DNA of 15,236 nt from Amoebophrya sp. A120 (lineage: Eukaryota; Protista; Dinoflagellata). The stretch spans positions 895,013 through 910,248 of the forward strand of contig CAJINV010000015.1 in the NCBI GenBank assembly GCA_905178155.1, given 5' to 3'. This document shows positions 1 through 15,234 of the stretch, in pieces. The notes under the pieces are model-generated. The model made no database searches, had not been told where the DNA came from, and worked only from the letters and a program-made list of their open reading frames with translations. Numbering within the stretch: position 1 is the stretch's first letter; each line of letters begins with the position of its first letter. The position numbers and the translations under genes were made by a program.

Positions 1-220
1 CCCGAGGGCCATCTTCACACACATACAAATTTCTCAGGTTCTGGCTACCGTACAACATGCTAGGGCGGGGCCGATACATAAAATACCGCCCGCCCAGCCT
101 CAGCCTTGGCTCACAGGCTCGCAAGACTGCTGCTGCCCGGGCATACATTTTTATTTTAGAGACCAAAGTTAGCATCACAAGTTCCAATTCTTCCAGACCC
201 AGACATTTTTGCATTTGATA
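1..220. mobile_element. Introner family B, partial (left end outside the window), in the PAN/Apple-like gene
   Basis: Right terminus ttccagacccagacatttttgcatttgata is nearly identical to the end of 5392-5653. Confidence 0.85.
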
Positions 221-1156
221 CGTGGCAATGTCACTACCCCCGATCGCGAGGGAGTTGAACTCGTTGCACGCCCCGCCCCACACCGCGGGGCAAACGCGGC
301 CCTTCAGCTGACACTGATCTAAGGAGTGCTCCTGCCAGTGACTCCCACTTTCCTCTGTACAGCCAGCAGAAAAAAGATCGCACCAGCCCTCCGTTCGGTC
401 TGTTCGTGTGGTGAAGGTCGTGCAGCCGTCCGTCATGGCGCACAGGTACCGGCACTCTTCCTTGGAGTAAACTCGGTCCGAGTAGAAACCAACCCTTTTG
501 TCCCGCCACTCTTTACAACCTTTCGCGACTCCGGGGCAATTTGCGTCGCTGTCGAGCAAGGGGGTCTCTTGTTGGTCGATGCACTGTGCCTCGTTACGCT
601 GCAGTGTGTAGTAGGGGTAGTCGTGATTGCCGGCCTGCAACGCCGAGGTCGTCGCCAGCGTTGGGTCAACTTGGCATCCAGCCCGGTAAAAAATGCAGTT
701 GATATTATGTGTCGCCATCGGAACAATCCCGAACGCAACGCACCCGGAAATGGCCCGACACTGAGTGTCACAGGACCGTAACGTCTCGGTAGCGGTGTTC
801 GTCCGCGAAATCTCATAGGTGGCACTGCTTTCGTCGCACCCGCCACCCCGCTCCGGTAAACACAACGGGTTGAAAAAGGGCTCCAGGGAAAAAGCAGCAT
901 GAACCAGAGGGAGGTGAAAGTAGGAGGAGCTATTTTTCTTTTCGACTAAAAACAAAAAGCAGCGGAAGAACAAGATGAACAACAAACACGGAGCGAGAAG
1001 AGAGTAGGAAAAATGAAACGCATGTAGTTTATTTCGCTTTGATATTTTCGCAGTTGTCCCGGCGGCACTTCCCGTCCTCGTCGTTCTCGTTGCCCGGCAC
1101 CTAAGCAACAAGCGAACATGTGTTCTTGACGATGAAACATTCAACATCGTCAACAT
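221..1156 (-). CDS. First exon of a Cys-rich PAN/Apple-like repeat protein with an N-terminal hydrophobic segment (gene continues past the left edge)
   Basis: Missing from the ORF track because the frame has no stop inside the window. It is open from ATG 1156 (upstream in-frame TAG at 1187-1189) into the introner at 1-220. Translation includes the hydrophobic SLLAPCLLFILFFRCFLFLV and two repeats with PAN/Apple-like Cys spacing: LRSCDTQCRAISGCVAFGIVPMATHNINCIFYRAGC and SKEECRYLCAMTDGCTTFTTRTDRTEGWCDLFSAGC. Start codon uncertain. Confidence 0.72.
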
Positions 1157-2170
1157 GATCGTATTCTGCTCGTGCTGACGGTGCAGCTACATCCTTTTCA
1201 CAGAGGACTACTTTCACGAACGACTACTCGAGGAATTAGTATCTGCGAAAGCAATTCGAATTCTGCTTCTAAACAAACTTTGTTTAACAAAGCCTCTACG
1301 AGAAAGCAAATAAACACTTTTTCTACGCGTACCTAGGTAGTTGGTGCGAAGTAGCACTTTGTTTCCCCGAAGAACCACTTCAAAAATAGAATCTCCACGA
1401 AAAAGAAAGAGCTCCTGCATTCATGATCTTCACATCGGCAATTTGGATTTACGTCGGGGAAGTGTATGAATATCAAACGAATGAACTACGACGCAACAAA
1501 AAAAGCCGCACAGAAGTGTGCAAACTTTTGAGATTTGGAGTAATGGAAAGCGCCTCGTCGACCGAAAGCCGCCGAGGCAGCAGGGAAAAATACCGAAAGA
1601 AATCATGATCAACCATATTCCGGTTATTAAGCGGTAATGAAGTAGCGATGGGAAAAGCAAAAGTCATGCAGAAGCAACTTCAACACAGCACCATCGCATG
1701 ATGGGGTTGCAGCCCCAAGAATCCTGCTTCTTCCTGTTTCATAGACCAGACTGAAAACGCCGGTATTAAGCAGTTCTCCCCAACATACTTCATGAAAAAA
1801 AAAGAAGGTCCTCAACGTCTACTGCTCGCCCCTAGGGCGCGTCATGGAGTTTTTCGGTCTTTTGGACGGCTTGCAAGCCACTGAAAGAAGTTCCAGTTCG
1901 CATTACATACATGATAGTTCTTTTCTTTGCACGATAATTGTCTTCACGTATTTTCAAGGTGGTTTTTCCAGCTACGGTTCGATTTTCGATTCGATTTCTA
2001 CTTGAAACAAAATTACAGCTCAACTTCAAGGTGAAAGTAGGTACTTAAAATGAAAAAGTGATTCTGTTCTTGTTGGATGTTACGCTAACGGTTACGGAAA
2101 AATCGCAAACTCCTACTGCTGGGGCTGTTGATTACAGTACATACTTACTGCAGCACCCAAGTAGACTGCC

Positions 2171-2299
2171 ATCAGCTCCACTCCCGCTCCATGAGGCCAT
2201 TCTGAATGTCCCAATCAGCTCCACTCCCGCTCCATGAGGCCGTTCTGAATGTCCCGATCAGCTCCACTCCCGCTCCATGAGGCCATTTTGAATGTCCCA
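2171..2299. repeat. 3 x 43-bp tandem repeat spanning the KAP stop codon
   Basis: Units 2171-2213, 2214-2256 and 2257-2299, consensus atcagctccactcccgctccatgaggccattctgaatgtccca, with 1-3 differences between units. Confidence 0.95.
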
Positions 2300-5200
2300 C
2301 TCGAGATTCATCTGGTTAAAGTACCCCCCGCCTGCTCCGCCTGCATTCATTATCCAATGTAAAAACGTCCCCACCCCATAGTCAAGATGAGGATTCGGCT
2401 AGACAAATCCACAAGTTTTGCATGTTTTGCATGACAAATGTGCAACGTGGACTCGTAGTGTAGTGCTGTTTGAGGTACTTAGTTCAGCAGCATCACAGAT
2501 CCAGTATACCAGGCTGATTGGAGCATGACAAGTTTCAAAACTACGCGAATAAAAGATGCTTGCCATGGGGCTGCGCATGAGAAACATTCTCAGCATGCAG
2601 ATTTGCACTACAACTATGGGGTGGGGATGTTTTTAGATACGATATTCATCCCCAGAGAGTTCTCTACCTCCCACGCCTCCCCGGTTATTTGGGAACTCGG
2701 ACTATTGGAATTGCTTCCGAATTGGTTGTTGAACGTATGTCCGTTCATGTTACCGAATCGATTATGCAGCCCGTCAACATTGTTCTCGTAGTCCTCGTCT
2801 TCCCCAATTCCAATGATGCTCGTCTCGTGATTCAGCATGGAAATCTCCAAAACCCACTGGTTATTGTGCGACTCGAACTTCAGGCCCTTGATCCGCTCCT
2901 GCCAAGTGGTCTGCCACAAGGGGCTGGTGGACGCGTTGGAAGAAGAGATTAGCGACAGCGTGTCGAGCGTTTTCCGCGCTTGGTTCTTCACGGCAAGAGA
3001 CTTGTGGTTCAGCGCGTCAATGACGTAGGGAATGAGCTGCTGGCTATGCATTTTTGCGAAAGTATCGGTATCGCACTCGTCTAAATCGCATGACAAATTT
3101 TTCCAGAAGGAGAATCGGGCTCTGTCATGCTGATTCAGGTAAAATACCTCCAGATCTGTATCTGTAATGCAAGACTGCCATCTATACATACGAGTACGAA
3201 GATCATACTTTTGCAATGCATAGTGGTCCTCCTCTAGCAGAAACTCTCGAATCTCGTCCTGCAACGACATGCATTCGAAGGCGAACAGTAAATGGAGGAT
3301 GATACCTATCGCACGAAAAAAGTGTTTCACTGTAAGGATTTTGCAACTTTTGCATCACAAGTTTGTTCCGCATGACAGAGAAAATTTGCCATGCGGAATT
3401 CCTAGGGGAAAACACAGCTACAAATCCATTGTCTTGCATGTGTGGCAAGGCAAATGCTTCTCAGATACATTTTCTGCATTACAAGTTTACAGCGAAACAG
3501 TTTTTTCTTGCGATAATATCGTCGTCTTCCTGCTTCTCTACCAGCAATTCGATCAACGTCGACAGCAATTTCGGCTTATCCTGTGCAAAAGTATCGTACT
3601 CGTATAAATGCAAGTCTTGCATTACAAATCTTGTTTCCAAGGCAAATCTGCATTACAAATTTTATTTCTCACGCGGAGGAAATTTGTAATGCATTTATAC
3701 GAGTACGATACTTTTGCAATGCATACGGCTCCAGCGCTAACATATGAACTGCAAAAGTATCGCTATCGCACTCGTATAAATGCATTACAAATTTCCTCAG
3801 CATGAAAAATAAAATTTGTAATGCGGGTTTGACTTGAGAAACAAATTTGTAATGCATGATTGCAATACGAGTACGATACTTTTGCAGTTCATATAACAGC
3901 TGCGACGCTTCCTCGTTTTGCGCAATCAGTTGGACTACCAATACGGACTCGAGCACGAGGTCGTCCTCCGAGAACCCCACGACGAGGAGTCTGTGTAGCA
4001 CGTCCACCAACCCGTAGTCGGGCGAGATCAGTTCCGCCCAGGGCACCGGCGGGATCGACGGGTCATTGTTGGGCAGGTCCAAATTCGCAAGTAAGCCGAC
4101 GACCTCGAGCAAGAGATCCGGGTCTTCCAGTTGTGCAATACAAATTTCCCGTACATGTACAAAATGCATCACAAACTTCGCTAACTTTGAGTGTCAAACT
4201 TGTCATGCTGACTAAAGATTGAAGGCAAGTTTTGTCATGCAGAGACAACATTTGTACGTGCACAGGAAATTTGCTGTGGATACCAGTTGTGCGAGTTTCA
4301 TTATCTCGTGCAGCCACCGAGACATGCGGACCTGGAGATGAACTTGCGAGGATGTTGTTAAACTTAGCAGGTTGATGCAACGAACTATCTGATGATCACG
4401 TCCGAACAATGAATGCAGCATGTTGACAAAAGAAATCGCCTTCTTCAAGAATCAGTGTATATTTACCTTATGTATTATACCTGATCACTGCACAGCAATC
4501 GCTGTACCAATTCCCTGACCTTCTGGTGCGAGCACACGTAGCGTATTACCTTGCACAGCATGGGGTCGCGCGTTTTCAGCAAGCGTAGGATGAGCTGCGG
4601 AAAGAGAAAATCGACCTGCCCGTTGTTGCGGTGGAGCTGGCACACAACCATGAGCTCCGCCGCTCTACTGTGCATTGCAAATTTGTCTGGGTCTGGAAAC
4701 CTGTGATGCAGGCCAGTGAATACGAAGCTCTCTGTAATGCACCGCGAAGCATGACAGGTTTTTTCGTCGCGCTGCGTTGCGTATTCCGCGCAAGAAAGTG
4801 CGCTTTTGCATGACAGGCAAGAGGAGCTCCTGTTTGTGGCCGCGCAACACAGAGTCAAGAGTCATGCCAGACAAGCATGACAAGCTTGCACTCTCACAGA
4901 CCCAGACATATTTGCAGTCGATATCTACTGTGCAAAGACAAGTTCACCAGCAGGCAGATCAGGTCCTTGCCCACGCGGTTTGGGTCCGGAAAGTGAATGG
5001 TGAGTTGCAGCAGCATATGCATTGCAAAAGTGTCGAACTTCTCGTAGTTGTAATAGCATTTGTGCATTACAAGCTCCTCCCTTAAGCTGAATCCGCATCA
5101 CAAATTTCACTCCTCATGCTGGGCAAATGTGTAATGCAATTTTTTTTTTTTGTTGCGATGCTTTTGCAATTCATACAGCATCAGCATGCAGTCTTGGTGG

Positions 5201-8200
5201 TAGGTCAGCAGCGATTTGCACCGGTCGTCTTTGGTGAACTGGTAGAGGAGTTTCAGGACAATTTGTCGGAAGGGCGGGTGCTTCAGCAAATCCACCAACT
5301 GCTGAAAAAGTTCCCCGGACTCCGCCAGGGCGGACCGGACACTATCCTCAAAACTCAGGTTGAAAAGCACTTTCAGCGAGAGCAACGCGATTATCAACCG
5401 CAAACGTGTCTGGGTTTGGAAGGTCACAACTTGTGATGCTGTCTGTGGATTCTAAAAAAATTTGCATTGCATGACCAGCAAGAGGGGGCGGGTTTTTCCT
5501 ACGCGGAGAGGGCATTTCTCATGCGGTAGAGGCATCACAAAGCCCTCTAAAAATCTGCGACGCTACGGCATGCATCACAGACATCATGGCCCGTGGAAAA
5601 TATGCATGACAAATCTAGAAATCTTCCAGACCCAGACATTTTTGCACTTGATAGCGATAAAAGCAGACTGATGTTGGGCGAGTTGCACCTGTTTTTGTGT
5701 TGATGTTGGCGGCCTATAATATATATACTTTGTCACAATGGAAAGGAATGGGAATCTGAATCGGAGTTATTTCAGCAATAGAATATTAACGGGCCTTGTT
5801 CATGATCAGCGTTTACCCTCCGATGCGCTAATATCCGCACGCTTTGACTTTTTGCGTGCCGGCGCATGATTTAGATTCAAGCAGCAACTTTTTTGACTTT
5901 TATCATACCAGCCTGGGCACGATCCTCGTTTCTGCCATGACTTCCTTGTTTTCTTCAAAAATTGTCAACTTCTTCAAAATATCCTGTGCAAAAGTATCGT
6001 ACTCGTATAGATGCATTTCCTCAGCATGAGAAATAAAATTTGTCATGCGGATTTACTTTAGGAAAAAAATTTGTAATGCATTGATTGCAATACGAGTACG
6101 ATACTTTTGCACAGAATACAAAAACAGCAGGGCGACGTAGAGCAGCTCTTCCATGTTTCGGTCTAACAAGGCACACAACATTTTCACGAGTCCCCGATTC
6201 ACCATCTTCTTCTCGATGAAAATATCCTCTGCTATATCGCAAGAAAAAACTGTTATTTCACTGTAATGCAGAAAATGTATCTGAAAAGTGTTTGTCTTGC
6301 CACATATGCAAGACGAAGGATCTTTAGCTTTGCTTTCATCCCTTAGGAATCTCGCATGGCAAATTTTCGCTGTGATGTAGAGCAAATTTGTGATGCAAAA
6401 CTTGCAAAATCCTCACAGTGAAACACTTTTTCCGAACGATATGCTAAATTCAGCAAGATGTGCAGCGCAGTGTGGAGGAGTTTGTTCTGTTTCAATACTT
6501 GTACCTGGTATTTCTTCTCTTCCTTTTCCGCTTTCACTTTTTGCTGCGAGAAAGAAGTGCTAGCATCTTGCTGCTGGTTGTGGGAGTGTCAGGATTGAAA
6601 TCGTCGAAGTTGAAATAGTTTGCGATGCATAAAATGCTAGACGCAAAGTGCCTGTCTTGCAGAACAGGCAACTGAGGCCGATTATAAGCCTGTTTGGGGT
6701 GTGAGATAGAGCTGCCAAAATAGCATGACAAAAGCAGTCCTCTCTGCTCAAACAGCACGACAAATTGGATTTCTATGCTGCCAAAATTTGTCATGCGCCA
6801 CTTGCAAACTGGGCTCCAGCTGGTATCGCTTTGTTGCATTTGCAGACTATTTCAACTTTGAGGATTTCGATCCTGACACTCCCATACTGGTGGTCTACTC
6901 CACCGGGTGGAACATTTTGGCCGGTGTTCAAAAACGGCAGGATGTATTGTTCCCGCTCCTGCGTTGTCCTTTGCAAAAGTATCGTACTCGTATCGTATTG
7001 CTATCATGCATTACAAATCTTTTTGCTATAGGTAAATCCCCATTACAAATTTTATTTCTCATGCTGAGGGAATTTGTCATGCATTTATATATACGAGTAC
7101 GATACTTTTGCAATGCATATGCGTCCGGATTGCGTATCTTTTCGATTCGTACTCCAATATCCTGAGACTCGAGTCCCCGCATTGGAAGTTCTATGGATTC
7201 CAAAAGTATCGCACTACTCGTATAAATGCATTACAAATTTCCTCAGCATGAGAAATAAAATTTGTAATGGAGATTTGCCTTGGGAACAAGATTTGTAATG
7301 CATGATTGCAATTACTACGAGTACGATACTTTTGCACAGGGTAAGTTCCCGAGCACTTGGTGAAACACCGGAAACGCGGAGAAGCACAGTATGAACTGCA
7401 AAAGTATCGCACTCGTAGTAATTGCATTTATGCATTACAAACCCGGCTCCCAAGGCCAATCAGCATGACAAATTCCATTTGTCATGCTGAGCGAATTTGT
7501 ATTGCAATCACAACTACCAGTACGGTACTTTTGCAATGCGTACACAGGAAGATGCAGCAAATCGCGGTGGACAGATCGTGCGATTTTTTGTAGTTCTCCT
7601 TCAGTTCTCGCGACAAAATCGGCATCAAAGACTCGTTATCAAATGCAAAAATGTCTGGGTCTGGAAACTTGTAATGCTAAAAATGAATGATAGACGCGCC
7701 GCAATACGCAGCTATGGATGACAAATTTTGTGGCTGCCATGTCTTACGTATTCCGCATGGCAAACTGCCTTTTCGCATGACAGTTAAGAGGGCTCTTTCG
7801 TGCCTATGCAACACAGATTCTCGAGTCATGCCAGACAAGCATGACAAACTTGCGTCCTTCAAACCCAGACACTTTTGCAATTGCTACTCGTGGTTCGAGA
7901 TCAATTCCAAATTTCGTGGCTCCAAGCACACCCGGAGGATGGACTTCGCGCCCTTCACCTTCAGTGGCAGTTGTTCTTCGTAGAGCAAGTCCGAGTAGTC
8001 GTCCAGTTCCGCCCAACTGGCCGGGGTATCAAGGTGAAAAATGCCCCCACCCCCGAACTTGGGAGCATTTGTATTGCAAACCTTTCCAAATGAAACACTC
8101 GCCCTCTTGCATCTATCAGCATCACGGATTTGTTCCAATCGTGAACAATAGCAAAGATTTGCATTGCAAAAGACGCCAGCAAGAGTGGCGCTTGTCATGC

Positions 8201-9131
8201 AAGCGATGCGATACACGCCTCGAATCTGCATCAGAAAGATTCATTTTCATACTTCTTTCATGCATGACAAAAAGTTTTCATTTGGAAACTTCGCATCACA
8301 AGTTTTTGCGACTTTGGGGGTGGGGGCATTTTTCACTATAATACGGGGGCAGGATGGTTTCCAGCACGGAAAGCACCGGCGGGGGTGGGATTGGCCCCGA
8401 CGGCATCATGTTCTGCTGCTGCATTTGCGCGTTCTTCTGCTGCAGCATCGACCTGACATCTCCTCGGTCTGCGGTGCGACTACGGCTGCTGCTCGGGCGC
8501 GCCGCGTTTGGATTCGTTGCCGTGGAAGAAGATGTCGGCCCGGTGCCTATCCTGTGTAAAAACGTCCCCACCCCATAGTCAAGGTGGGGATTTTGCAACA
8601 CAAACCTAGAAGTTTTGGGACTCACGCATCACAAATAGCAGTCCGTAGTGTAGTGCCGATTAGCAAGGACACACGCATCACAAATCCATCTGCTTATCCT
8701 GGTTACAGCATTACAAATGCCAAAACACGACTAGAAACGCCTCTCATGGAGATACGCATTACAAATGTTCCTGTCATTGCAAATCTGCATCACAACTCTG
8801 GTGTGGGGACGTTTTTACAAATGATAGTGCCGGGGTAAACGCCTGAAACAGCTCCAGCACTCTGTCCGCCACCGCCTCCGGTCGTTTCTCGGGCCATTTC
8901 GTGCAGTAGTCTTTCCACCTCGTTGACTTTCGAACTGGGGATGTATTTGCATTTTTCCACTACCTCCGCCGCCAGGTCGGTTATATCTGCTTCGGCAAAA
9001 TCCCGTGGCAGGCGCATTTTCTTTTTCTTGATCTCTCCGCCGGACTCGTAGACTGCAACGATCGCGTACTCCTCATAGTCGATTTGCAGGTCCTTCAACC
9101 GCTTTTTCGAAGAGCTACTGGAAGATGTCAT
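2258..9131 (-). CDS. KIFAP3: Kinesin-associated protein (KAP3/KIFAP3/FLA3 homologue; armadillo-repeat accessory subunit of kinesin-2), 21 exons, 881 aa
   Basis: Exons (upstream TSD copy counted as exon): 9131-8827, 8542-8344, 8021-7887, 7631-7543, 7384-7344, 7186-7120, 6959-6887, 6573-6442, 6229-6119, 5974-5909, 5688-5654, 5386-5176, 5010-4924, 4663-4481, 4331-4283, 4126-3894, 3737-3726, 3571-3516, 3301-3223, 3039-2645, 2345-2258 = 2646 nt, ATG to TGA, no internal stop. Motifs are collinear with KAP3 as I recall it: LAAEVVEKCKYIPSSKVNEVERLL; ELDDYSDLLYE; LSRELKENYKKS; KQNKLLHTALHILLNLAED; LFLKKLTIFEENK; LFNLSF; LLEVVGLLANL; EDDLVLE; LIELLVEKQEDDDI; WQERIKGLKFESHNNQW. Confidence 0.93.
2351..2644. 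mobile_element. Introner family C (KAP intron 20)
   Basis: TIR tatccaatgtaaaaacgtccccaccccatagt / actatggggtggggatgtttttagatacgata; TSD ttcat 2346-2350 and 2645-2649. Confidence 0.92.
3045..3222. mobile_element. Introner family A, diverged (KAP intron 19)
   Basis: TIR tatgcatttttgcgaaagtat / atacttttgcaatgcata; imperfect TSD ctggc/gtggt; removal joins EEDH to QLIPY. Confidence 0.85.
3307..3515. mobile_element. Introner family E (KAP intron 18)
   Basis: TIR tatcgcacgaaaaaagtgtttcactgtaa / ttacagcgaaacagttttttcttgcgata; TSD atacc/atatc; reverse-complement homologue of 6235-6441. Confidence 0.92.
3577..3725. mobile_element. Introner family A (KAP intron 17)
   Basis: TIR core tgcaaaagtatcgtactcgtataaatgca at both ends; TSD cggct 3572-3576 and 3726-3730. 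Confidence 0.93.
3743..3893. mobile_element. Introner family A (KAP intron 16)
   Basis: TIR tatgaactgcaaaagtatcg / cgatacttttgcagttcata; TSD taaca 3738-3742 and 3894-3898; opposite orientation to 3577-3725. Confidence 0.93.
4132..4282. mobile_element. Introner family G, single copy here (KAP intron 15)
   Basis: TIR core caaatttcccgtacatgtacaaa / tttgtacgtgcacaggaaatttg; TSD ccagt 4127-4131 and 4283-4287. Confidence 0.88.
4332..4480 (-). other. Canonical GT-AG intron (KAP intron 14)
   Basis: Donor CAG|GTATAA contains an in-frame stop; acceptor CATCTCCAG|GTC gives SDQVRMSRWLHE. An alternative in-frame acceptor at 4389 cannot be excluded. No TIR or TSD. Confidence 0.7.
4669..4923. mobile_element. 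Introner family B (KAP intron 13)
   Basis: TIR core tgcaaatttgtctgggtctg / cagacccagacatatttgca; TSD tctac 4664-4668 and 4924-4928. Confidence 0.92.
5016..5175. mobile_element. Introner family A, diverged (KAP intron 12)
   Basis: TIR tatgcattgcaaaagtgtcg / cgatgcttttgcaattcata; TSD cagca 5011-5015 and 5176-5180. Confidence 0.9.
5392..5653. mobile_element. Introner family B (KAP intron 11)
   Basis: TIR tatcaaccgcaaacgtgtctgggtttggaag / cttccagacccagacatttttgcacttgata; TSD gcgat 5387-5391 and 5654-5658. Confidence 0.92.
5689..5908 (-). other. Canonical GT-AG intron (KAP intron 10)
   Basis: Donor CTG|GTATGA, acceptor CACAAAAACAG|GTG; joins IVPRL to VQLAQHQSAFIALL. AT-richer than the exons; no TIR. 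Confidence 0.85.
5980..6118. mobile_element. Introner family A (KAP intron 9)
   Basis: TIR tatcctgtgcaaaagtatcgtactcgtat / atacgagtacgatacttttgcacagaata; TSD caaaa 5975-5979 and 6119-6123. Confidence 0.93.
6235..6441. mobile_element. Introner family E (KAP intron 8)
   Basis: Ends tatcgcaagaaaaaactg / cactttttccgaacgata; TSD tgcta 6230-6234 and 6442-6446; removal restores LLNLAED. Confidence 0.93.
6579..6886. mobile_element. Introner family F, single copy here, about 50-bp TIR (KAP intron 7)
   Basis: tgtgggagtgtcaggattgaaatcgtcgaagttgaaatagtttgc versus the reverse complement of the right end, tatgggagtgtcaggatcgaaatcctcaaagttgaaatagtctgc; TSD ctggt 6574-6578 and 6887-6891. Confidence 0.93.
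6965..7119. mobile_element. Introner family A (KAP intron 6)
   Basis: TIR core ttgcaaaagtatcgtactcgtat; TSD tgcgt 6960-6964 and 7120-7124. Confidence 0.92.
7192..7343. mobile_element. Introner family A (KAP intron 5)
   Basis: TIR core caaaagtatcg / cgatacttttg; TSD agttc 7187-7191 and 7344-7348. Confidence 0.92.
7390..7542. mobile_element. Introner family A (KAP intron 4)
   Basis: TIR tatgaactgcaaaagtatcgcact / agtacggtacttttgcaatgcgta; TSD cacag 7385-7389 and 7543-7547; removal restores IFLCFSAF. Confidence 0.92.
7637..7886. mobile_element. Introner family B (KAP intron 3)
   Basis: TIR tatcaaatgcaaaaatgtctgggtctg / caaacccagacacttttgcaattgcta; TSD ctcgt 7632-7636 and 7887-7891. Confidence 0.92.
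8027..8343. mobile_element. Introner family D (KAP intron 2)
   Basis: TIR core gtgaaaaatgcccccaccccc at both ends; TSD cgggg 8022-8026 and 8344-8348. Confidence 0.93.
8548..8826. mobile_element. Introner family C (KAP intron 1)
   Basis: TIR tatcctgtgtaaaaacgtccccacccca / tggtgtggggacgtttttacaaatgata; TSD gtgcc 8543-8547 and 8827-8831. Confidence 0.93.
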
Positions 9132-10605
9132 GGTCCGTCGTGTGATGGATCTTCCAAGAACCGGATAATTGATTCCTCCCGCCGAGCTGCAGTACCGCTA
9201 GCGCCTGTCGAGACGGTAAGTACTTCTACAGCAGCTCCTTTGTAGTGAATACGCGCTGGCCGACGTGTAAGAACTAATTCTTGCGTCGCGCGGCTCCGTC
9301 TGAACGCCTTGCCGTCTTCATTCGCCCGGAAGATGAAGAACCAGCGACGGCACGTCTACTACTTCCAGCCGAATTTCCTAGAAAAAACATGCACTTATAC
9401 AAAACTGGTCGTCCCACTCTATTGTCACTCTTCTGCCGCTCTCGGCTGCTCTCCGAGAATCATACTTAGCTGAAAAAGAACGGCAACTCAACAAAACTCG
9501 CGAAAGAAGTATGACCACCTCTTACGAGCACGCTCAGGACCAGACCGGAGGTGATACAAGGGTGCAGCTCTCAACCAACATGGTACGCAGAAAAAAAAAG
9601 AAACCAAAGTAGCCTACACACGTATAATCACACGTGCGGTACACCGAGATGAAGCGCCTGCGCACTCAAGAAACTACACAGCCTGCGCGTGAGGAGGACG
9701 GCTGCAGCTCCCGCACCAGCTCCTGAGTGTGAGAAGTTGTATTCTTGAATCGATGAGCGTGAGAGTCGTACAACCAGTTTGCCAAAAATAACCTTTCGTT
9801 CTGTAGCTGCAATAGTGTCAGAAGTACTAGCAGGTTCAGTGTGCCGCGAATTTTTGCACCGTTCGTGTTCGTATGTTGAATCTTCCCGCCAACAGAGATT
9901 TGGATTTCTTTTGGCGTACAAGTCGCTTGCCGTAACAAGCGCGTCCTGCCGTGACTAATACAGAAAGCAAAGGAGTACTGTGGCACCGTAAACGTGATTT
10001 ATTTTTGAGAAATAGTCTTCCATAGGGTTCAAAATTAGTAGGACATTGCACAACTCAGCTGGTCTTCAATTCTAATTTTTCAGGGGCGTAGAAATTGGTA
10101 ATGCTTGTTGTTTTTGAAAGAAAGCTCTTGAATTGGATCTGAAAATGTAACAAAATTTTTCCGATAATGTAAATGTATGAAGTGAGAAGCACTACGTCAA
10201 TAGCAAAATGTGTAAAGCGTAAACGTAAAGTTGTGAACAATTAAATTGTACACGTCAATGACTGAAGATAGCACAAAACAAAGTTATACGAGAGTTCGAT
10301 GTTTACAAAAAAAAATACTTTAAACGACAGTTTGTTTTTGCACGACCCTAAATAACCACCACATGATTTTTTCATTCCTTTTTCAACCGCCTCTGTGTAA
10401 GAAATTTTGTCGATCTTATTTCAACTCAAATCACAGTCATGTTGCGAAATGATATCACTTCCCCAGAACTTTTCGCACCTCCGCTCCGCCTCGTTCCACC
10501 TCATCTTGTTCCAAAACACCATCTTCATCCCCGCAGATAAAAGAAAAATCTTTCACGCGGAAATGAAAAGGTGAATAAAACTCCACATCGTCCCCCACCG
10601 CGTTT

Positions 10606-13539
10606 TTAAAACGGCTTCTGCAGCGCGTCAACGATGCCGCTGGCCGCTTGCATGACGCGGGCCTGGGTGGCCTCGTATGAATTACAAAAGTATCGTACTC
10701 CTCGTATAAGCGCATTACAAATTTTCTCAGCATCAGAAATAAAATTTGTCATGCGGATTTACCTTGAGAAAAAAAGTGTAATGCACGATTGCAATATGAG
10801 TACGATACTTTTGTACAGGATACCTCGTGCGTCCGAGCGAACTCTTCCTGCTGCTTCTGAATGAAGGCAGAGGCCTCCGCTTCGGCCGCAGCCTCCAGCT
10901 GCTCCGGAGTCAGCAGTTCGCCCGTGATCCGGTCGGCAATGGAGATCTCGGCCTCACCCTCGGCCGTGATGGTGGTCTTCTGCAGAAAGGTATGCAAGAA
11001 AAAAACTATGTGAGTGTAAGTCTGTGATGCTGAAAATGCAAAGCTGTATACACGTGTCATGCTGGATGTGCGTGGTCGTAGACTACTTTCATACGTGTTT
11101 TCACATGCTAGCTGCGCATCACAGGTTTTCCCTGTAATGCAAAACGAATTTGTGATGCTGCCCTTTCTACAAGGTTACACTGACACAGTTTTTTTCCTGG
11201 ATAAAAGGCGCTGGCACCTCCGGCCCGGGCGGCGGCCTGCGCATTGGCATTCATCCGGCCCCCGCCGCGGCCAGACGCTGCGGCATGCGCATTCGCGTTG
11301 GCCGCAGCAACAGCCTCGTCGTCGCCGTCCCCAGCCGGGATGGTGTTCACACCACCCTGCGACAGGATGCCGACTTTCACCCGTTCGTTGACTTGGTCGT
11401 AGTTTCCACGCATGTCCTATCCTGAGCAAAAACGTCCCCGCCACCCCAGAATCAATTGTCATGCAAATCTGCATGCAAAAAAAGTTTCTCATGCGGGAGC
11501 TTCGCAATCGCATGAGAATCGTTCTCAAGTCGTGTTTTGAAGTCTGTGATGCTAGAATCAGCACGATATGCTAGATCAGTGATGCTGCTGGACTAGCTCA
11601 ACAGGATTACATTCACCGAGGACAAACTTGTCATGCGAAACAGCCAAAGCTGGCTGATTTGTCTAGTAGATTTCCTATCTTGACTATGGGGTGGGGAGGT
11701 TTTTGCTCAGGATATGTCCGCGTTCTTCATGACCTGCTCGGCGGTTTCGGCTTGCATCTTCATGGCGACAGCCGTTTGCTTATGCATTGCAAATATGTCT
11801 GGGTCTGAAAGGATGCAAGGTTTGTCATGCTTGGCCGGCATGACTCTTAGCTCTGTGATGCATGAGCAGGAAAAGAGCCCCGTGGGTGTTATGCAAAAAC
11901 GCAGTTTGTCATGCGCAAAGCGAAAGACATAGCAGCTCAAAAACTTGTCATGCTTGGCCACGTATTGCAGTCGTGCATCCACTATTCACTGCTTTGCATG
12001 ACAACTTTCCAGACCCAGACATTACATTTGCAATGCATATTGCTTCGCCATCAGGTCCAGCAGCGCGGCGTAGTTGTGGTACTGCTCGGATCAAAGTGAA
12101 AAAAGCCCCCACCCCATATCGGAAACGGAAGATGCGCGAATTTGTGATGCTGTATTTGAGTACACAAATCGACTTGTATTGCTAGAAGGCCAAGCGACGA
12201 AGCTGCGGCCTAAATTGCAGGCAGTCTGTCATGCTGTTCCCCACTTCCAGTTGCCTCCTGCCATCCTGGAGCTGCAAGGCTTTCCCACGCTAGGCAGCAC
12301 TACAGTCCACCGCATCTTCTGGCTCTGCCTTCTAGCATCACAAGGCTGATTTGTGACCACAAATCTGCATCACAGATTTTGATTTCCTTTTTGATATGGG
12401 GAGGGGGCATTTTTCATTGCCATAGCTCCGCCGTTTGCTGCAGCACCACCGCCTCACTGCGAAGGCTGTTTTTTTTATTGGTGAAGAAGCAAAATTTCTT
12501 CTGATAGGTACCAGCGCGATTTTGCATAATTGCACTTTTCCTTTTTCTTCATCTACATTTTCTACCAAAACGAATGAATTCAACTGATTCAGATGATGGC
12601 GATCATCCCTGGCCCTGCTTGCAGACGCACAGAGAAGCTGCAGAGTCTTATTCTTAGTATAGTAAGTACTCATATTTTATTCTTCTTTTGCACATTATGT
12701 ATGAAACCAAACGAAACACTGAAATTTTATGGGAAAAAAAAGTACATTTTGGCGGACATGACAATTTTTTTGTGCATGGCTTGCAGGTTCTTCGCTTGCA
12801 GGTGGTTCATCTTGGCCACCTTTTCCATCTGTATCCCGCGTAAAAACTACGTCCCCACTCCAAGTCCAAAGTTCTTGGAATGCAAATCTGCATGCTCAAA
12901 ATGTTGTTTCATCTCATGCGGAGGTGTAGACCCATGATGCGACGCACTTCCTAGTGCCGTTTTGATAAATTTGCGATGCTCGCAGCCGAGTGCTGGTGTG
13001 CTAGATCTGCATATGTGATGCTGCTGCACTAGCTAAAGTTATCAAGACGACTACATTGCGACGTCGCGCCCAAGTAGTTTGTCATGCGCAACAACCAAAG
13101 CTCGTTGATTTAGATTTTTCTAGCAGATTTTCCATCTTGACAACTGCAACGCGAAGGAGGAAATGGGGACGTTTTTACTCCAGATAATCAGCTTGGCCGC
13201 ATCGTCCCCCATGGCAGGGAGCTTCTTGCCTTTGCCGACGGGCGCGCCGGCGCTGGCGGACGCGGAAACCTCGACCTCGGTGTCATCGTCGCAACAAGAA
13301 GAAGAACTGGCGAAGGAGCCATCGTTTTCCGAGGAATACGAAGCACTCGATTCGGCCGACGAATCGGATTTCGTCTCCTGCTTGGTCGCCTCCTTGGCCA
13401 GGAAAGAGGTCGAGGAGGGAACCGCCGCCGCACCAGCAGTGCCCTCGGTTTTGAACGCCGAGGCTTCGCCCGAGGTCAGGCAAAAGTTGGTGGAGACGAG
13501 GAGCTTCGCTCCGGCCAGGACCTTGGCTTTGTACAACAT
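10606..13539 (-). CDS. Hypothetical Ala/Ser-rich protein, possibly secreted, 8 exons, 338 aa
   Basis: Exons 13539-13187, 12826-12746, 12465-12425, 12083-12040, 11775-11715, 11412-11204, 10985-10823, 10670-10606 = 1017 nt, ATG to TAA. The frame is restored across 6 introners and one GT-AG intron: MLYKAKVLAGAKLLVSTNF...AAKLMEKVAKMNHLQAKNLQAMHKKIVMSAKILRSEAVVLQQTAEQYHNYAALLDLMAKQTAVAMKMQAETAEQVMKNADMRGNYDQVNERV...SAFLQKTT...SAFIQKQQEEFARTHEATQARVMQAASGIVDALQKPF*. No family recognised. Confidence 0.8.
10676..10822. mobile_element. Introner family A (gene 2 intron 7)
   Basis: TIR core tacaaaagtatcgtactc; TSD cctcg 10671-10675 and 10823-10827. Confidence 0.92.
10991..11203. mobile_element. Introner, family E-like (gene 2 intron 6)
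   Basis: TIR tatgcaagaaaaaaactatgtgagtgtaa / ttacactgacacagtttttttcctggata; TSD aaagg 10986-10990 and 11204-11208. Confidence 0.9.
11418..11714. mobile_element. Introner family C (gene 2 intron 5)
   Basis: TIR tatcctgagcaaaaacgtcccc / ggggaggtttttgctcaggata; TSD tgtcc 11413-11417 and 11715-11719. Confidence 0.93.
11781..12039. mobile_element. Introner family B (gene 2 intron 4)
   Basis: TIR tatgcattgcaaatatgtctgggtctg / cagacccagacattacatttgcaatgcata; TSD ttgct 11776-11780 and 12040-12044; opposite orientation to 4669-4923. Confidence 0.93.
12089..12424. mobile_element. Introner family D (gene 2 intron 3)
   Basis: TIR gatcaaagtgaaaaaagcccccaccccatatc / gatatggggagggggcatttttcattgccata; TSD gctcg/gctcc. 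Confidence 0.88.
12466..12745 (-). other. Probable canonical GT-AG intron (gene 2 intron 2)
   Basis: AT-rich; donor AAAAT|GTACTT and acceptor AAAAAAAACAG|CCTT give the in-frame join MSAKILRSEAVV. No TIR. Confidence 0.68.
12832..13186. mobile_element. Introner family C (gene 2 intron 1)
   Basis: TIR tatcccgcgtaaaaactacgtcccca / tggggacgtttttactccagata; TSD atctg/atcag. Confidence 0.88.
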
Positions 13540-14401: not shown

Positions 14402-15107
14402 TCACATCGACTGAACTCGTCCTGCTTGCTCTTGCAGGAGGTTGTCAACAAGTATAAAGTTGTGACGCGCAAAATCATTCTCGCTGCGCAGTTGGCACCG
14501 CCGGCTGGATATTCGTATTCCTTTTTTCGCTAGATATTCCTCAAACTCAGTTGCGGATTGGATACTGCTTCTCAGATGGAAGACATTCGAATTTCTCTTT
14601 GAGGCGGCGTTATGATCGTGACTTTCACCAGAAAAAAGTTCTTCGAACCATGCGTCTAGAAGTGCGACTGGCAAAAACATCTTGTCACCGTCAAGGACAA
14701 GAGCACTAGTAGAGAAGTCGGAGCTGCTCGACGTCTTGCTCCCAACAAGAGCATTCCGGGTGATCAGTCCTGGTGTTGGGTTTCTCAATTGCACTATGTT
14801 TCGCACACTATCCTGCACATCCTTCACCATGGCCTGAAGGTTCTGGCTCTTCTGCAGCTGAAAGGAGGTAGTTGATGTTGTAGAGCGAGACGTCTGATTT
14901 CGATGAGAATTTGCTGGAACTAAATCTAGTTCCGTCAGATCCCTTGTCAGTGCCGCGGAGGGAAACAGGGTGAGGGAAGAGAAGGAATCGAGCAGGTAGC
15001 AGGACGCAGCTTCCGTAGAGGACTTTTGTGATTGTACTCTACTTCCCAACCGCTTGCTGATGCTGGCCTCGTATTCATCTTGGTGGCTGTAGTTATTCCC
15101 ATGATGA
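14402..15107 (-). CDS. Probable last exon of an unknown gene entering from the right edge
   Basis: The 215-aa ORF 14402-15049 starts at TTG, but the frame stays open upstream (HHGNNYSHQDEYEASISKRLGSRV...) to a candidate introner at 15108. Same strand as the neighbouring genes. No recognisable domain. Confidence 0.5.
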
Positions 15108-15234
15108 TCTGGTAACCAAATGCGTGCGCGCGCGCGCGCAGAGCGCGCGCCGGCCCACGAAGCCGGCGCGCGCGCTCTGCGCGCTTGCGATATTGCTTAG
15201 CAAACGCAGCGCGAAGGCAGTTGCCGTTACCATA
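15108..15234. mobile_element. Candidate GC-rich introner of a distinct family, with an internal hairpin
   Basis: Ends tctggtaac / gttaccata are inverted repeats. Internal arms 15134-15154 and 15162-15184 are complementary. The right TSD is cut off by the window edge. Confidence 0.5.

Follow-up and report, generated by a model that had tools for sequence, protein, structure and literature searches.

Transcript-polarised end letters and a proposed splice register of introner elements in Amoebophrya sp. A120

Introner elements of the dinoflagellates Amoebophrya A120 and A25 were described by Farhat et al. (2021; PMC7789003), in whose account about two thirds of the introns of both are non-canonical and the mode of splicing is left open. 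In A120 the inverted repeat reads TAT, seven variable bases and AAA, the direct repeat measures 3-5 nt and removal is supported by RNA, and in A25 the repeats begin TTA (PMC7789003); terminal inverted repeat (TIR) elements of A120 with integrase-like frames are also described (PMC12130899). We analysed a stretch of 15,236 nucleotides of Amoebophrya sp. A120 (contig CAJINV010000015.1, positions 895,013 to 910,248; hereafter the window). It contains 24 complete elements, 139-355 nt in length, and a single 5' end (at 220) whose closing repeat is absent inside the window. All lie within minus-strand genes, according to a list rebuilt from inverted and flanking repeats. With the same TAT repeats, 5-bp direct repeat and removal from RNA, these are the known introner elements of A120. 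The published text (PMC7789003) reports no clear splice signature, an unknown and variable border and ends that are not oriented by transcript, whereas the elements studied here point to a fixed register and hold three letters that are polarised with transcription. No account of a register or polarity is contained in the available text of PMC7789003, PMC11282704, PMC11453091, PMC12787238, PMC12130899 and PMC12621601, a scope that stops short of subscription papers, figures and bioRxiv supplements; the logos in Fig. 3 of PMC7789003 may already hint at the rule. The elements themselves are known, and the transcript-polarised rule and the register are new.

Non-canonical introns derived from miniature inverted-repeat transposable elements (MITEs) were reportedly described in Fritillaria borealis by Henriet in 2019. 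There, as here, transposon ends act as splice sites (bioRxiv 2025.08.15.670264; PMC11282704), and a U2-type spliceosome was shown to be necessary (bioRxiv 2025.08.15.670264). According to the same preprint text, 88% of the unambiguous Fritillaria introns have a penultimate A and U1 is conserved, whereas no 3' dinucleotide is preferred here and U1 was not found in A120. The A that would be penultimate in the Fritillaria manner is among the freely changing sites of our elements, and a U12-type signature is equally lacking (RTATCC in 3/24, no 3' preference). Euglenid nonconventional introns share the inverted-repeat hairpin, the duplication-like border repeats and the non-canonical ends; in the account available (PMC11282704) they are reported to leave as circles without lariat, with borders between Y and R, whereas our elements show no preferred border letter and their held letters resemble a GTA donor. 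A constant distance of about 6-8 nt between branch A and 3' end, comparable with the A at -7 discussed below, is reported for Yarrowia, Trichomonas and Giardia (PMC2483917) and for Entamoeba invadens (bioRxiv 2022.06.08.495308). In these sources the four organisms keep a strong ACTAAC-type motif and AG, in contrast to our elements, in which a lone A would be left with neither motif nor AG.

The elements have the form TAT[G/C]...[G/C]ATA, with a 5-bp direct repeat outside that is perfect in 20/24, and repeat positions 11, 12 and 13 are A in 24, 24 and 25 of the 25 5' ends in the window. Every element forms a hairpin. An orthologous stretch from a related genome (L035), 93-96% identical to the window, has an empty site with a single 5-mer for 5/7 elements checked, shares the other 2 and has two insertions that the window lacks. 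These empty sites with one 5-mer identify the 5-bp repeat as a target duplication and the elements as mobile; the latter are short, non-autonomous, MITE-like TIR transposons. A TA target duplication in the style of Tc1/mariner, with the last TA exonic, was ruled out, as the duplication is 5 bp outside TA and RNA skips the element plus 5 nt.

An earlier note on this sequence had described ends that decay asymmetrically with respect to transcription. A recount gave the same numbers: TA at 25/25 transcript-5' ends (TAT 22; TAC 2, at 7343 and 7542; TAG 1, at 7886; TATT at 6118 and 8343) and [G/C]A at -4/-3 in 24/24 transcript-3' ends (ATA 19; ACA 4, at 4132, 4669, 6579 and 6965; ATC 1, at 12089). 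The window alone is thin, its 10 changes being split 0/5 and 5/0 (2x2 p=0.008) along a division chosen post hoc, with p=0.05-1 for single positions. An independent set was obtained by scanning metagenome contigs with a 22-nt repeat motif, which gave 134 loci (L001-L134, 687 kb) with relatives of 22/24 window elements. Ends were placed without positions 1-4; 772 candidates were examined, 620 resolved and 526 found to be unique and outside the window (an earlier end finder made 1 match in 212 kb of shuffled sequence). Transcript direction was taken from a codon model on element-free sequence, which was correct for 22/22 window elements. With 79 elements lacking a clear coding context omitted, 447 were oriented, and omission of 8 with two or more changes in the three terminal bases and of 1 window orthologue left 438.

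In these 438 elements, repeat positions 1, 2 and 3 carry 1, 2 and 13 changes at the transcript-5' end and 9, 7 and 4 at the transcript-3' end (Fisher p=5.6e-4). The asymmetry thus persisted at positions 1-3 in the larger sample, and a strict set of 373 gave 1/0/11 versus 4/7/4 (p=1.4e-3). Numbered in the intron register proposed below, T(+2), A(+3) and A(-7) are polarised with transcription, and T(+2) and A(+3) are held relative to the mean of three free sites (binomial p=0.002 and 0.008). The invariance originally claimed did not hold, with 3 exceptions at TA and 4 at the 3' A, and the [G/C] proposed as part of the signal dropped out, position 4 changing without polarity (18 versus 26). The polarity score was 22 by transcript and -2 by element orientation (random flipping, p=1e-4). 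The elements are randomly oriented (226:196), and both orientations show the polarity. The asymmetry therefore tracks the transcript and not the element, as had been anticipated; independence from genome strand was less clear, with an uneven split between contig strands.

This split is one of several observations that tell against reading the polarity as a splice signal. The plus strand of the contigs gives 21:2 and the minus strand 8:5 (p=0.29), the latter becoming 16:5 only when the window is included, and orienting by contig strand still scores 16. A(-7) is the least constrained of the three letters (4 changes where about 10 would be expected; Poisson p=0.036, binomial p=0.059, or 0.013 with the window). 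In one family an internal site, at repeat position 21, is polarised too (see below). The weak minus-strand subset, the small number of events (36) and an ACA rate that is higher in the window than in the loci (4/24 versus 7/438, p=0.0015) would fit a polarity produced by context-dependent, transcription-linked mutation or by chance, the more so if the internal site were a strand-specific hot spot. Against this stands the replication in data that had not been used to frame the idea, together with the direction of the changes at neighbouring sites. Sense A>G occurs 8 times at -1 and once at position 2, sense T>C 9 times at position 3 and once at position 1, and sense T>C is also free at element-end position -2; changes in the A-run show no strand bias (14 versus 14). 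Since the free directions alternate and the A-run is unbiased, one strand-biased mutation cannot give the polarity, and we see only a slim chance for mutation or accident as its source. Selection on splicing is very probably the cause. A retained element would be harmless in just 12/402 cases, and selection would remove insertions that lose U+2, A+3 or A-7, since these would be badly spliced.

The elements together with one duplication copy are missing from mRNA. All single joints in RNA-like contigs (20/20) remove exactly the element plus 5 nt, and among the joints listed this skip is found at at least 22/24 elements, a double joint accounting for two. The joints comprised 15 of the 58 in one set (10 single elements, 1 double, 2 GT-AG introns and 2 repeat artefacts) and 11 in a second (10 elements and 1 GT-AG intron). 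For the elements at 4669 and 5016 removal is implied by contig coordinates, the model fitting 6/6 checkpoints, and the spliced model of the gene for kinesin-associated protein 3 (KAP) is identical over all 881 amino acids to the public protein P0001, labelled Amoebophrya sp. A120. An exon of 12 nt (3727-3738) between two element introns is retained in the RNA contigs, and both neighbouring insertions are absent in L035. The contigs all come from one sample and are only presumed to be RNA, which counts against the evidence from joints; since the same contigs skip GT-AG introns too and lack 1017-1524, DNA-level removal is counted against. Raw-read runs X11 and X12 covered repeat copies only and no window exons. 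About 90 reads of run X11 combine the family end of 189-220 with other flanks, corresponding to a copy elsewhere that is kept in RNA.

The position of the cut was narrowed with diverged duplications. If one register holds, the joints at four such window elements place the intron start 1, 2 or 3 nt before TA (duplications in Table 1). The 3045 element is incompatible with cutting either at TA or 5 nt before TA, the elements at 3307 and 12832 restrict the cut to 0-3 nt before TA, and P0001 equals the spliced model only for starts 1-3 nt before TA. An intron starting at TA is accordingly excluded by the 3045 element and P0001, and an intron with a penultimate A (start 4 nt before TA) by the joints at 3307 and 12832 and P0001. 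Conserved residues in the loci narrow the range further. In a Rab1-like gene (L018:1183) the P-loop lysine, which is essential, is kept only with the upstream letter at duplication position 3, giving a start of 2 nt or less. A His in a peptidase-like gene (L041:496), common to the A25 orthologue P0005, needs the upstream letter at position 4 and brings this to 1 nt or less, and at L067:238 comparison with P0003 suggests the downstream position 4 as the changed letter, which favours the one-base register. Of 5 elements that have lost the 5' TA, 4 are preceded by G, so that their donors read GC or GT (p=0.017). Two of these assignments are of low confidence, and the elements include one of the 8 set aside for multiple changes and one of the 79 lacking a clear coding context. 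The top 18 non-canonical boundaries in Table S4 of PMC7789003 all have T as second base.

In all likelihood, judging from these few cases, the intron starts one base before TA and ends so that the held A is at -7, six bases before the intron end. The intron would read N-T-A-T...A-T-A-N-N-N-N, made up of the last base of the first duplication, the element and the first four bases of the second. In this register U at +2 and a purine at +3 are found in 25/25 window elements, with 1 and 2 exceptions among the 438, and GT...AG ends occur in 1/24 window and 4/402 locus elements. The earlier suggestion of a donor with a relaxed +1 and TA at +2/+3 agrees with this register, bracketed as it is one base before TA. 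Its counts of G before 10/25 elements (p=0.16 in our test) and of the donors GTATGA, GTATAA and GTACTT were correct, and yet the implied enrichment of G at +1 disappeared (111/433, about 131 expected). As neither +1 nor the 3' end shows a preferred base, G at +1 and AG at the 3' end were rejected as preferred targets, and the idea of a 3' cut placed at a constant distance from the A, with AG unnecessary, is supported. A bias that seemed present at duplication position 5 (p=0.004) was dropped when a wider background gave p=0.17.

Some of the evidence speaks against the one-base register. It rests on single related-genome cases and on conservation, not RNA, and assumes a single register for all elements; L067:1036, a poorly conserved spot, weakly favours the opposite (P0003); the T-second boundaries of Table S4 may reflect aligner preference (PMC7789003); and codon-likelihood and GC-direction tests did not discriminate between registers. 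With RNA from the window alone permitting 1, 2 or 3 nt, and with variable borders drawn in the 2021 paper (PMC7789003), the cut could lie 2 or 3 nt before TA or vary between elements, and TA would then not be +2/+3 nor the A -7. In view of L018:1183, L041:496, L067:238 and the G-preceded exceptions this would be most surprising. At L029:13999-14267 the upstream letter at duplication position 5 makes an in-frame TGA and the downstream letter TGG, which fits the one-base register. The case carries little weight, since stop codons are reportedly read as residues in another Amoebophrya (PMC11453091). The element at L001:2873-3123, which has lost the A at -7 and has the duplication AGGTG, fits a GT-AG intron exactly when a different register is taken; 16/402 normal elements offer such a reading, which makes the case an anecdote.

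The removing machine is probably the spliceosome. N-U-A matches the donors of the three RNA-confirmed GT-AG introns in the window, of which 3/3 begin GTA, and this match points to the spliceosome. A relaxed spliceosome would take any base followed by U-A as donor, the A seven bases before the 3' end would serve as branch point, and the cut would be set by distance; -7 is a workable distance, because the branch is positioned likewise in Yarrowia, Trichomonas, Giardia and Entamoeba. The symmetric TAT...ATA end would give both signals in either orientation, and tolerance of either orientation would follow from this symmetry. We give the whole model, an N-U-A donor combined with a positional branch A(-7), about an even chance. 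U2, U4, U6 and U5 are reported to be present in A120, U1 was not found and minor small nuclear RNAs are reported absent in the available text of PMC7789003. A U1-less spliceosome that needs no terminal G, cutting before N-U-A, branching at a lone A and ligating six bases on by distance, is a tentative extension that we place somewhat below even.

A(-7) is a candidate branch point by position, and 4/438 elements lack the A. The label yUnAy denotes the branch-point consensus, and no such consensus surrounds A(-7), with yUnAy in 149/439 3' ends versus 133 when flipped. A spliceosome with an N-U-A donor could instead branch elsewhere, with the hairpin or U5 setting the 3' cut, which would agree with A-7 being the weakest constraint. 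In the three largest families, however, no other A is better kept on the transcript-3' side and the sole significant internal column is a loss of an A at -21, so that a branch elsewhere appears distinctly improbable. Predicting GT-AG introns de novo, with the aim of a branch logo from the loci, recovered 1/3 known window introns, and its output was not used.

A structure-guided, non-spliceosomal or second machinery could also be at work, cutting 1 nt ahead of the hairpin and 4 nt beyond it and rejoining the ends, with U+2, A+3 and A-7 as enzyme contacts. The hairpin present in every element (z=-9.6 for 5980-6118), the failure to find U1 in A120, the lack of AG and of G at +1, and euglenid stems that likewise begin nearer the 5' than the 3' end (PMC11282704) would suit such a machinery. 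Against it, G.U and A.C mismatches at positions 4-20 of the transcript strand are balanced (299 versus 291), and at positions 4, 5 and 7 pairing stays at the level of shuffled ends. These counts gave no support to RNA stem wobble as cause of the polarity, which, as the earlier note had argued, is explained neither by symmetric transposase binding nor by plain stem pairing in the 438 elements. As the held letters moreover agree with the GTA donors of the window and elements that have lost TA tend to have G at +1, we consider such a machinery unlikely.

A fixed register with three selected letters predicts that introns begin one base before TA and branch at A-7, and that the terminal bases play no role. 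The two terminal intron bases are thought to be checked in the spliceosome active site (bioRxiv 2025.08.15.670264), and if the spliceosome removes these elements, terminal bases are dispensable in a living organism. Were the model true, any TAT...ATA transposon with a 5-bp duplication would be a perfect intron either way, under the most reduced splice code known, and a U1-less spliceosome code of this kind would underlie tens of thousands of intron gains. The rule can be used for re-annotating borders, and it would account for a symmetric transposon end being harmless both ways.

The polarised internal site lies at repeat position 21 of a 150-nt family, in which T in the 5' arm with G in the 3' arm occurs 52 times and the reverse 8 times (p=1e-4 and 3e-4 for each arm alone). 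It is the sole such pair among 147 columns, and two other families tested have no similar internal site. General wobble does not account for the effect (117 versus 100 without position 21), and the window members (3045, 3743, 7192, 7390 and 5016) show the same trend, 4 versus 1. The search motif carried the T variant of position 21, and both strands were scanned. U at +22 may be needed, A at -25 may be harmful (at a guess, as a competing branch A), or the site may be a strand-specific hot spot.

The coordinates of all introns and host genes are collected in Table 1. The product of the KAP gene matches Pfam KAP with E=3e-115.

Table 1. Element introns (drawn in the proposed register), host genes and GT-AG introns of the window
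Feature	Coordinates	Strand	Remarks
Element intron, 5' end only	1..221	-	element begins TATC at 220 after G; extends beyond window; no RNA joint among those listed
Element intron	2347..2645	-	element 2351-2644; duplication ATGAA perfect; joint skips 299
Element intron	3041..3223	-	element 3045-3222; duplication ACCAC/GCCAG; joint 3040-3224; P0001
Element intron	3303..3516	-	element 3307-3515; duplication GATAT/GGTAT; joint 3301-3516; empty site in L035
Element intron	3573..3726	-	element 3577-3725; double joint 3576-3894, 7 letters between; empty site in L035
Element intron	3739..3894	-	element 3743-3893; double joint 3576-3894; empty site in L035
Element intron, 3' end ACA	4128..4283	-	element 4132-4282; joint skips 156; empty site in L035
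Element intron, 3' end ACA	4665..4924	-	element 4669-4923; removal implied by contig coordinates and P0001; present in L035
Element intron	5012..5176	-	element 5016-5175; removal implied by contig coordinates and P0001; empty site in L035
Element intron	5388..5654	-	element 5392-5653; joint skips 267; present in L035
Element intron, 5' end TATT	5976..6119	-	element 5980-6118; RNA joint; hairpin z=-9.6
Element intron	6231..6442	-	element 6235-6441; RNA joint
Element intron, 3' end ACA	6575..6887	-	element 6579-6886; RNA joint
Element intron, 3' end ACA	6961..7120	-	element 6965-7119; RNA joint
Element intron, 5' end TAC	7188..7344	-	element 7192-7343; RNA joint
Element intron, 5' end TAC	7386..7543	-	element 7390-7542; RNA joint
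Element intron, 5' end TAG	7633..7887	-	element 7637-7886; RNA joint
Element intron, 5' end TATT	8023..8344	-	element 8027-8343; RNA joint
Element intron	8544..8827	-	element 8548-8826; RNA joint
Element intron, sole GT...AG reader among 24 in the proposed register	10672..10823	-	element 10676-10822; RNA joint
Element intron	10987..11204	-	element 10991-11203; RNA joint
Element intron	11414..11715	-	element 11418-11714; RNA joint
Element intron	11777..12040	-	element 11781-12039; RNA joint
Element intron, 3' end ATC	12085..12425	-	element 12089-12424; duplication GGAGC/CGAGC; joint 12083-12425
Element intron	12828..13187	-	element 12832-13186; duplication CTGAT/CAGAT; joint 12826-13187
KAP gene, 881 amino acids	2258..9131	-	18 element introns and 2 GT-AG introns
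Second host gene, 338 amino acids, no function assigned	10606..13539	-	6 element introns and 1 GT-AG intron; RNA joints, open frame
GT-AG intron, donor GTATAA	4332..4480	-	KAP gene; joint 4329-4479
GT-AG intron, donor GTATGA	5689..5908	-	KAP gene; joint 5686-5907
GT-AG intron, donor GTACTT	12466..12745	-	338-amino-acid gene; joint 12465-12746

Rfam gave no matches in the window. A 43-nt tandem repeat in three copies (2171-2302) overlaps the KAP stop codon. On the minus strand, an open frame at 222-1140, which matches a PAN domain weakly (E=0.003, short of the cut-off), is broken by the element at 220, and RNA-like contigs cover 14510-15099 of a stop-free frame of 264 codons at 14402-15196.

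The two copies of the duplication differ at 109/2195 position pairs (5%). Selection keeping the copies identical was rejected, as this divergence would correspond to the drift of two sites. Extension of the direct repeat by more than 2 nt was found in none of 268 locus elements. At two of the four ACA ends in the window, direct repeats of 10-11 nt reach into the element end (4127-4136/4283-4292 and 4664-4674/4924-4934), and at these elements (4132 and 4669) the end looks as if copied from the upstream exon. A GCAT(T/C/G)ACAAA-like motif recurs many times inside the elements of unrelated families, with 20 copies in one orientation, and is likely a binding site for a transposase or a host factor.

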